Sequence record: NC_028957.1
DNA length: 64,000 nt
Source of the DNA: Escherichia phage vB_EcoM_VR26
Reading direction: 5' to 3' (one strand)
Shown: positions 2,616-3,514 of the stretch, piece after piece
Layout of the letters: every line of letters begins with the position of its first letter
Position numbering within the stretch: the first letter of the stretch is position 1
Program-made: the position numbers and the translations under genes
Notes under the pieces: generated by a model
Told to the model about the DNA's origin: nothing
The model's database searches: none
The model's input: the letters and a program-made list of their open reading frames with translations, nothing else

Positions 2616-2652
2616 TACTTTTTGAAGAAAATTTCAAATTTATTCGGGGTAT

Positions 2653-2680
2653 AAAAAAGCCCCAACCTTTCGGGAGGGGC
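2653..2680 (-). terminator. rho-independent terminator after the T5orf172-domain gene
   Basis: Reverse strand reads AGCCCCTCCCGAAAGGTTGGGGCT followed by TTTTTT. Confidence 0.6.
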
Positions 2681-3339
2681 TATACCTTGTCGGGGTTCCA
2701 CCTGCAAGGCAAGTGTTCAAAATAGGGTGCGCCGTGAATACGACCACGTTGAACAAAGCCGTCATCTACTTTCATAGCAAGCAGGATGAAGTCCATAAGA
2801 CCCTGATTGATTGGTATTTCAAATTTCGTAGATTTAATATCTAATTTTTTAACTATGGAACTTATGTCATGAAAGAAAAACCATTCACCATTTATATGGT
2901 CCTGATTATAAATGCTGTGCATATATTTTTCAAGTTCTACTGCATCCTGGGAATATCTAAATGATACTATTTTAAAACTTTTAAAAGGTGAAAATGTATT
3001 TGCTGTTATAGCTCTAACATCGGGTTCTATACTTCTTCCTATTTTATAATAATTAGGATTTGTAGTGTCTACCATTATGTATACAAAAGCTTGTCGATAA
3101 CTTTTTTCTATGTCAAATTCATCTTTAAATTTCAAAAGATTTAGGGCAGCAGTCCTACAAAATACTCTCCATATCGACGAGCGTTTAGCTTCGGTCATCG
3201 AAAAGAATTTTTTCTTATCTATGATTTTAAGAAAAGCCACCTTTTCAATTAGTTCTTGTGTTATTTCAAAATTACCATGGTATATTAATCCAGCTTTTAT
3301 AGCCAAATTAATTTGGTCCCAGTCTACATCACTTCTCAT
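2680..3339 (-). CDS. T5orf172-type GIY-YIG domain protein
   Basis: 219 aa; C-terminal half carries FVYIMVD...YYKIGRS ... ELEKYMHS...HINGEWFFF, which matches the T5orf172/GIY-YIG pattern as I recall it; N-terminal ~90 aa unassigned. Confidence 0.55.
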   Translation of the reverse strand: MRSDVDWDQINLAIKAGLIYHGNFEITQELIEKVAFLKIIDKKKFFSMTEAKRSSIWRVFCRTAALNLLKFKDEFDIEKSYRQAFVYIMVDTTNPNYYKIGRSIEPDVRAITANTFSPFKSFKIVSFRYSQDAVELEKYMHSIYNQDHINGEWFFFHDISSIVKKLDIKSTKFEIPINQGLMDFILLAMKVDDGFVQRGRIHGAPYFEHLPCRWNPDKV

Positions 3340-3358
3340 AATATTATTCTCATTAATT

Positions 3359-3435
3359 TGGTCGGGGTGAAAGGATTCTAACCTTTAACCTGCGGTTTAG
3401 AGGACCGCTACTCTATACAATTGAGTTACACCCCG
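3359..3435 (-). tRNA. tRNA-Arg (anticodon UCU)
   Basis: Reverse complement folds as a cloverleaf: acceptor CGGGGTG/CACCCCG, anticodon stem GCGGT/ACCGC with loop CCTCTAA, T-stem AAAGG/CCTTT, encoded CCA. Confidence 0.8.
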
Positions 3436-3439
3436 TGTT

Positions 3440-3514
3440 TGGTGGCCCTTGCTGGTTTCGATCCAGCTACCTATCAGTTATGAGCTGACAGCTCTCCCAT
3501 TGAGCTAAAGGGCC
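3440..3514 (-). tRNA. tRNA with anticodon CAU (Met, or Ile2-type AUA reader by analogy with T4 tRNA-Ile)
   Basis: Reverse complement GGCCCTTTAGCTCAATGGGAGAGCTGTCAGCTCATAACTGATAGG...AAGGGCCACCA; 7-bp acceptor, anticodon loop CTCATAA, encoded CCA. Confidence 0.8.

Follow-up and report, generated by a model that had tools for sequence, protein, structure and literature searches.

We analysed a window of 64,000 nucleotides from Escherichia phage vB_EcoM_VR26 (NC_028957.1), a phage of the T4 type that is most similar to Escherichia phage VR7 (Gaprivervirus), and focused on an open reading frame (ORF) of 219 amino acids at the end of its tRNA operon, a region in which the two phages are 97-98% identical. 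As judged from its sequence, the encoded protein belongs to the T5orf172 branch of the GIY-YIG superfamily and, within that branch, to the two-domain subfamily that includes T5.069 of phage T5. We consider it probable, at about 60%, that the gene is a free-standing homing endonuclease gene which would act in the manner of SegB of phage T4 while being unrelated to it in sequence. This reading is supported by the identity of the nuclease domain, its hallmark residues, purifying selection, the boundaries of the cassette in which the ORF lies, the signature of transfer of that cassette between genera, the sporadic distribution of the ORF and its linkage to one allele of tRNA-Arg(UCU). The position of a 219-amino-acid protein gene beside tRNA-Arg(UCU) and a tRNA with a CAU anticodon, which an initial annotation had reported, was borne out by the ORF (3339..2680), by ARAGORN and by Rfam.

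The T5orf172 or GIY-YIG profile match on which the initial annotation had made its proposal depend was found with two Pfam models of the GIY-YIG clan. The protein matches MUG113 (PF13455; 34.1 bits, threshold 22.3) and, over residues 85-155, T5orf172 (PF10544; 26.3 bits, threshold 20), the thresholds being the curated Pfam gathering scores. Residues 1-176 match PHROG 5032, a family of unknown function (E = 1.7e-59), while a search of NCBIfam with the ORF gave no match. The AlphaFold model (predicted local distance difference test score 93.8) has the GIY-YIG alpha/beta fold, and its best matches in the PDB are GIY-YIG nucleases that act on DNA. The catalytic residues, which had been singled out for checking, were found to be intact. 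Y87, K99, G101, R109, P118, E137 and E152 are invariant in an alignment of 31 full-length relatives and G151, W153, F24 and F85 are nearly so; the conserved positions include the hallmarks of the GIY-YIG and T5orf172 families, namely the tyrosine of strand 1, the YKIG motif, the arginine and the glutamate of the G-E-W motif. In a weak profile alignment of low overall probability, hhalign also places VY87I, YKIG and R109 in register with Y6, Y17-V-G and R27 of I-TevI. Codons 1-176 were compared among the window, VR7, teqskov, ESCO10 and ESh27 and show no insertions or deletions, with ratios of nonsynonymous to synonymous substitution rates (dN/dS) of 0.08-0.23. For these reasons the gene is regarded as maintained as a protein under purifying selection and not as a decaying remnant.

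The N-terminal domain, left unassigned in the initial annotation, also resisted assignment here, as no fold or family could be assigned to residues 1-75. It is presumed to be a target-recognition module. The core of the protein contains a single cysteine (C61) and no CxxC motif, and Pfam and profile searches of the ORF for CapR, DUF723 and DUF4397 domains gave no match. A CapR-like regulator was therefore rejected, as there is neither a CxxC...CxC zinc finger nor a match to these three domains and the catalytic set is kept; the earlier suggestion of a nuclease-derived regulator is not supported. Homology to SegB was likewise rejected: a BLASTP comparison with T4 SegB gave E = 1.1, the classical GIY-YIG model is not among the Pfam matches and the domain order is reversed. 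A defence function was considered as well; the sole match in PADLOC, at the level of a domain, was to PDC-S57, a candidate system (20 bits), and it is no evidence for defence.

A HMMER search of the whole library gave 740 T5orf172-type matches, of which a limited subset spans both halves of the query, in proteins of about 157-196 amino acids. The most informative member of this group is T5.069, a protein of 172 amino acids that matches the MUG113 and T5orf172 models at residues 75-158 and shares 29% identity with residues 14-170 of the window protein by BLASTP (E = 8e-15). Both proteins consist of a helical N-terminal domain of about 75 residues followed by the T5orf172/MUG113 domain, and homology extends across the two domains. 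Judging by how long it is and where it lies, T5.069 is evidently the T5 'ORF172' from which the Pfam family T5orf172 takes its name. A profile search started from a narrower alignment of the family found nine related loci. The two-domain T5.069 architecture seems to occur in tRNA clusters alone, and at least five T4-like genera possess it.

Location was examined in VR7, teqskov, ESCO10, KpV477, ESh27, PS2, Muldoon, My1, NR01, ende, BF23 (two copies) and T5, and every one of these relatives lies within a phage tRNA cluster and on the strand of the tRNAs. The ORF directly follows tRNA-Arg(UCU) in PS2 and Muldoon, directly precedes it in NR01 and My1, and follows a CAU tRNA in ESh27 (Mosigvirus). 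In KpV477 it is placed between tRNA-Arg and tRNA-Thr and its TAG stop codon coincides with the conserved UAGCUCAG of tRNA-Thr, whereas T5.069 is placed between tRNA-Cys and tRNA-Asn and overlaps the latter by 24 nucleotides. The copy in phage ende overlaps tRNA-Lys. The two copies in BF23 are ORF trn 2.8 and trn 2.12.1, the second of which is absent from T5. Termination inside the next tRNA or tRNA-like gene was observed in KpV477, T5.069, BF23, ende and NR01 and also in VR7, teqskov and ESCO10, where the ORF ends within rnaD. The same geometry of a stop codon inside a tRNA gene has been proposed for SegB as a brake on expression, in which tRNA processing would cut the mRNA at the stop codon (PMC2330249). 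The natural tails of the family are context-dependent, comprising one to about nine residues that are read from the next tRNA gene. The window copy does not end in this manner, as rnaD is gone and its TAG lies just before the terminator; this loss is secondary and is no argument against homology. The window copy thus differs from T5.069 in having lost the stop in the next RNA gene and gained a plasmid-derived tail, in its linkage to a tRNA-Arg(UCU) allele, and in residing in a T4-like (Straboviridae) rather than a T5-like phage.

Comparison of the tRNA flank among relatives, a check that had been proposed with the initial annotation, revealed a mobile cassette. The block that begins at the 5' end of tRNA-Arg and stops with codon 176 (3436..2811; 628 nucleotides) is 95.7% identical to teqskov, a Tequatrovirus, whereas its flanks are only 72-78% identical, and the ORF core has a G+C content of 29.5% compared to 38.6% in the first 8 kb of the window. 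The place of segB in T4 is taken in teqskov by the cassette, which replaces the sequence from a truncated tRNA-Thr through tRNA-Ile and segB to tRNA-Arg except for its last 6 nucleotides. The right boundary of the cassette can be placed at ...ATACCA|A because each genus keeps its own rnaD 5' end beyond it (AACAAG... in VR7 and VR25, AATGAG... in teqskov and T4). This insertion point, immediately after the CCA-A at the tRNA 3' end, corresponds to the preferred cut of SegB (CCAR), and a direct repeat, ACCAAA, flanks the insert at the 3' end of tRNA-Arg and at the end of the ORF core. At the left edge of the difference between teqskov and T4, a truncated tRNA was found in teqskov (L002:2708-2765; positions 8-63 of the Rfam tRNA model, 51 bits), a remnant of tRNA-Thr; it is the scar of the replacement that removed segB.

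The distribution of the ORF is sporadic. It was found in 24 of the 604 T-even records that match the region and in four of the 181 Klebsiella-phage records, where a simple empty and filled site was rejected since the tRNA order itself differs. An empty site is present in VR25 (Gaprivervirus), in which tRNA-Arg abuts rnaD. In the same genus, VR20 (L014:1595-1834) and SP18 (L008:2989-3228) carry an unrelated ORF of 79 amino acids in the same slot and behind the same leader (PHROG 33509; no Pfam match), so the site after tRNA-Arg accepts alternative cargo. The low G+C content and the excess of identity between genera indicate recent lateral spread and not vertical retention. The initial annotation had spoken of a mobile-element remnant; the mobile link stands, given a low-G+C cassette shared with tRNA-Arg, the between-genus identity and the presence of the ORF in a small minority of relatives, but a remnant does not agree with a full-length core, invariant hallmark residues and purifying selection.

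The tRNA-Arg(UCU) gene of the cassette is a distinct allele that travels with the ORF. At an identity of at least 97% this allele was found in exactly the 14 records that contain the ORF at 94% or more, and the next allele is 85.7% identical; it differs from the alleles of T4, SP18, VR25 and VR20. The anticodon loop reads CCUCUAA, in which C33 replaces the near-universal U33, and C33 is restricted to the allele linked to the T5orf172 ORF. The T-loop (UUAGAAU) has A56 in place of C56, and the D-loop lacks GG. Most of the differences from the VR20 allele, which has U33 and is 85.7% identical, are compensatory changes in stems, which suggests that tRNA-Arg(C33) is a working tRNA.

The window copy also bears a C-terminus of foreign origin, a feature absent from the initial annotation. 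That account had described a T5orf172-like domain at the C-terminus; the domain is present, whereas the C-terminal position applies to the normal form of 172-184 amino acids, and in the window the domain is central because a non-family tail follows it. VR7, teqskov and ESCO10 (Dhakavirus) encode a homologous ORF of 184 amino acids between tRNA-Arg and rnaD, with the last eight or so codons and the stop codon read from the 5' part of rnaD. In the window phage, the 263 nucleotides that hold rnaD and rnaC in VR7 are replaced by 89 nucleotides, of which 87 form a patch identical to plasmid DNA. The replacement removed the usual stop codon, so the ORF extends to the TAG at 2682..2680, and such lengthening upon a change of context is explained by the reliance of family members, as a rule, on a stop codon in the next RNA gene. 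The patch supplies residues 177-205, in the frame of the plasmid's own hypothetical ORF of 56 amino acids, and the remnant of rnaD and the spacer supply residues 206-219. Both rnaD (species 2) and rnaC (species 1) are therefore missing, while a comparable deletion in ESCO10 has removed rnaC alone (positions compared: L001:3534-3796 and L003:3533-3650); neither RNA has an Rfam family and both were identified by alignment to the T4 annotation.

Among the plasmids bearing the patch, which come from E. coli and Klebsiella, is E. coli pTMTA85713 (positions 1528-1614). The 87 nucleotides are also present in a record labelled Burkholderia cepacia ATCC 25416 'unnamed2'. The junctions coincide with microhomologies, CCAA (2814-2811) on the left and ACGGCGCA (2735-2728) on the right, the latter being shared by the plasmid and the rnaD 3' end. 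The patch looks like the product of a microhomology-mediated capture of plasmid DNA during the repair of a break. An assembly artefact is unlikely because phage sequence flanks the patch on both sides and is joined to it at microhomologies of 4 and 8 nucleotides. No phage record with the patch and no record of the exact chimeric protein of 219 amino acids were found, and neither IMG/VR nor the JGI metagenomes contain a 31-mer that spans the patch junction. Reading the CCAA junction as a CCAR cut site of the SegB type is speculation, and there is no T-loop motif before the left junction.

If the ORF is a homing endonuclease gene, its action can be pictured as follows. During a mixed infection, the N-terminal four-helix domain would bind a site in the tRNA region of a related phage that lacks the ORF; the likeliest places for this site are the tRNA-Arg(UCU) gene, its immediate surroundings and the junction formed by a tRNA 3' CCA. 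The GIY-YIG-type domain would then cut the rival DNA, and recombinational repair from the ORF-bearing genome would copy into the rival both the ORF and the tRNA-Arg allele next to it (co-conversion). In this account the cutting of DNA, its site and the binding of DNA by the N-terminal domain are inferred.

One parallel is SegB, a GIY-YIG homing endonuclease in the tRNA cluster of T4. It recognises GGTTCRANTCC, a motif of the tRNA T-loop, and its cut falls immediately behind CCAR at the 3' ends of tRNAs (PMC2330249). Both are free-standing genes for proteins of about 220 amino acids that lie sporadically in T-even tRNA operons next to tRNA-Arg. Flanking tRNA genes move together with SegB and with the group of the window ORF, and in both the stop codon is at or inside a downstream tRNA gene. 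In contrast to these shared features, no sequence similarity exists between the two proteins. SegB is a classical GIY-YIG enzyme with NUMOD motifs, a catalytic N-terminus and a DNA-binding C-terminus, whereas the window protein has the reverse order and a nuclease domain of the T5orf172/MUG113 type. The activity and homing of SegB have been demonstrated experimentally, while those of the window protein are proposed from comparison. The T-loop regions of both window tRNAs (GGATCGAAACC and GGTTAGAATCC) depart from the SegB motif.

A second parallel is provided by the T5orf172 homing endonucleases of ICP1 and other phages, the Odn nuclease and the repressor CapR, which have the T5orf172 domain and its catalytic glutamate in common with the window protein (PMC10448857, PMC8263062). 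T5orf172 nucleases are active and show homing-type behaviour in ICP1, and they mark exchange boundaries in other phages (PMC10448857). Like the window ORF, the ICP1-type proteins combine targeting and nuclease modules and occur at boundaries of genetic exchange between related phages. Their genes are located near those for terminase, ribonucleotide reductase and capsid proteins, whereas the T5.069 subfamily is confined to tRNA clusters, and T4 itself has no T5orf172 genes (PMC10448857). The region of T5 that holds T5.069 also contains F-TflI, F-TflII and F-TflIV (hegA, hegC and relatives), which are free-standing endonuclease genes among tRNAs as well and have the HNH catalytic fold instead of the GIY-YIG/T5orf172 fold.

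Several observations weigh against a homing role. Cleavage, a target site or biased inheritance has been demonstrated for no member of the T5.069-type subfamily, and no experiments on members of this group were found in the literature searched. The N-terminal domain showed no detectable similarity to any DNA-binding fold searched. While 87% of T5orf172 homing endonucleases carry CapR, DUF723 or DUF4397 zinc-finger domains (PMC10448857), the window protein has a cysteine-poor four-helix domain without a match to theirs. The foreign tail of 43 residues might impair the window protein. Clusters of tRNA genes are hot spots of mosaicism in any case, as the differing order of tRNAs in phage Mineola illustrates, and part of the presence and absence pattern could have resulted from general recombination. 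Finally, strong purifying selection together with the lack of decayed copies fits a gene that benefits the phage as well as it fits a cycling selfish gene. The main alternative, which we hold to be doubtful, is that the ORF is a domesticated phage gene which retains a GIY-YIG-type domain but persists through a benefit to the phage, perhaps in recombination or amplification of the tRNA region, in excluding competitors by cutting their tRNA clusters without homing, or as a regulator or processing factor acting on the DNA or RNA of the tRNA operon. The dN/dS values agree with such a role, as do the absence of decayed copies in five genera, the strict co-orientation inside the tRNA operons of both T4-like and T5-like phages and the repeated adjacency to tRNA-Arg(UCU). 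A benefit of SegB to phages, through amplification of tRNA and anti-defence loci, was demonstrated recently (PMC13096335), and CapR is a domesticated T5orf172 repressor (PMC10448857). However, most close relatives do not have the ORF, among them T4 with its normally maturing tRNAs, the low G+C content and the between-genus identity point to recent lateral spread, and the retained catalytic residues are unexpected for a pure DNA-binding regulator.

The family may also be, or have been, one of homing endonucleases of which the window copy is an inactive passenger, disabled by its tail or unexpressed and persisting as a recent event. The tail, which replaces the normal C-terminus and includes a hydrophobic stretch (GLMDFILLAMKV), would fit this, as would a Shine-Dalgarno sequence that is weaker than in relatives (GAG versus GAGGA) and the occurrence of the chimeric protein and its junction in no other record. 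We regard an inactive copy as unlikely, since the DNA for residues 1-176 is 97.6% identical to VR7, the hallmark residues are intact and the C-terminus tolerates variation, the tails of the family being context-dependent. Less plausible still is an RNA-directed enzyme that acts on precursors of tRNAs or tRNA-like RNAs, for instance by processing or protecting the neighbouring tRNAs. The invariable tRNA neighbourhood and the overlap of the ORF end with the next tRNA gene are its sole support; characterised GIY-YIG and T5orf172 enzymes are DNA nucleases (PMC10448857, PMC2330249), so are the nearest structural matches, and most phages with the same tRNAs do not have the gene. Homing is therefore our preferred reading. 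A bolder extension of it would make the T5 ORF172-type proteins tRNA-gene-specific homing endonucleases that ferry variant tRNAs between unrelated phage groups, with tRNA-Arg(C33) as the present cargo, which might withstand either an anticodon nuclease or the homing enzyme, with expression gated by tRNA processing through the stop inside the next tRNA gene, and with the plasmid patch as a repair scar of cutting. We think this extension improbable as a whole.

The features of the region are listed in Table 1. The operon runs in the order trna.4, trna.3, a small ORF, tRNA-CAU, tRNA-Arg, the window ORF and the terminator, with the ORF co-oriented with the tRNAs and being the last gene of the series, 19 nucleotides 3' of the CCA of tRNA-Arg. 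The three genes share the minus strand, which places the ORF downstream (3') of both tRNAs; the initial annotation had called it immediately upstream, which is true solely in plus-strand coordinates and reverses the gene order relative to transcription. In T4 the corresponding operon comprises trna.4, trna.3, trna.2, seven tRNAs, segB, tRNA-Arg, rnaD, rnaC, a conserved spacer and the terminator. The ORF leader of the window also precedes the different ORF of 79 amino acids in VR20. The terminator hairpin (2675..2660) begins right behind the stop codon of the ORF, and the terminator is kept in T4, VR7, teqskov and ESCO10 according to our alignment. A sigma-70-like promoter match inside the ORF, pointing downstream, might have arisen by chance in AT-rich DNA or, in relatives, serve as an outward promoter of the downstream RNAs (rnaD, rnaC).

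Table 1. Features of the 3' end of the tRNA operon in the window (positions are those of the 64,000-nucleotide stretch).
Feature	Position	Strand	Description and basis
Intrinsic terminator of the tRNA operon	2650..2682	-	Arms GCCCC/GGGGC around the CCGAAAGG hairpin, then a T run; terminator scan
Window ORF, 219 amino acids, ATG start	2680..3339	-	T5 ORF172-type protein with chimeric tail; TAG stop 2682..2680 included
Non-family C-terminal tail, residues 177-219 (43 residues)	2683..2811	-	Relatives stop at 172-184 amino acids; BLASTP to P0013; G+C content 47.7% versus 29.5% in the core
Operon 3'-end remnants	2684..2727	-	Last CC of rnaD, 8 unique nucleotides (CTATTTTG), then the conserved spacer found behind rnaC in T4; aligned with T4, VR7, teqskov and ESCO10
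Plasmid patch, 87 nucleotides	2728..2814	-	100% identical to cryptic enterobacterial plasmids of 3.3-3.8 kb
T5orf172/MUG113 nuclease domain, residues 84-170	2830..3090	-	Y87, Y98-K99-I100-G101, R109, E137, G151-E152-W153
Sigma-70-like promoter match inside the ORF	2905..2933	-	TTGAAA-17-TATAAT, 11 of 12 consensus positions
N-terminal four-helix domain, residues 1-75	3115..3339	-	F24, A64 and L68 family-wide; motif R-x-A-A-L-N-L-L-K
Leader, tRNA-Arg CCA to ATG	3340..3358	-	AAUUAAUGAGAAUAAUAUU; weak Shine-Dalgarno GAG; alignments
tRNA-Arg(UCU), allele travelling with the ORF	3359..3435	-	ARAGORN; Rfam tRNA 63.7 bits
tRNA with CAU anticodon	3440..3514	-	ARAGORN; Rfam tRNA 61.4 bits

The two tRNAs in Table 1 are the sole matches in an Rfam scan of the window. 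The CAU tRNA is the upstream neighbour of tRNA-Arg and lies outside the mobile block. It is 100% identical in VR7, ESCO10 and SP18 and 79% identical to tRNA-Ile of T4 over 46 nucleotides, and its T-loop reads AUCGAAA (A54 and A60). ARAGORN labels it Met, as it does the tRNA-Ile(CAU) of T4, and the window tRNA may be of the Ile2 type, decoding AUA and not AUG.

Beyond the operon, a module of about 520 nucleotides occurs at 1497-2640 of the window in three repeats, with a 31-nucleotide element, TTTATTTGGTAACTCAGTATGGAATCATTAT, at 1516, 2043 and 2560. The copies of this element sit within a sigma-70-like promoter match (TTGACC...CATACT). The small ORFs adjoining the repeats (1583-2077 and 2110-2535) have a common C-terminal region (PHROGs 9997, 18416 and 17275). 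The arrangement looks as if a small early gene and its promoter had been duplicated in tandem.

The T5orf172 domain family, its class of homing endonucleases and the tRNA-cluster niche are all already known. What goes beyond routine in the window is the tRNA-cluster-restricted architecture in T4-like genera, the linked tRNA-Arg with C33 and the chimeric ORF made by the plasmid patch. The patch offers a clear case from nature of what looks like microhomology-mediated capture of host-plasmid DNA by a T-even-type phage, and the natural loss of rnaC and rnaD shows that both are dispensable in nature. If the homing model is true, two unrelated GIY-YIG lineages, that of SegB and that of the T5.069 type, have converged on one niche and compete for it. 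The model would also provide a route by which variant phage tRNAs spread between genera, and in this way it bears on the role of phage tRNAs as counter-defences.

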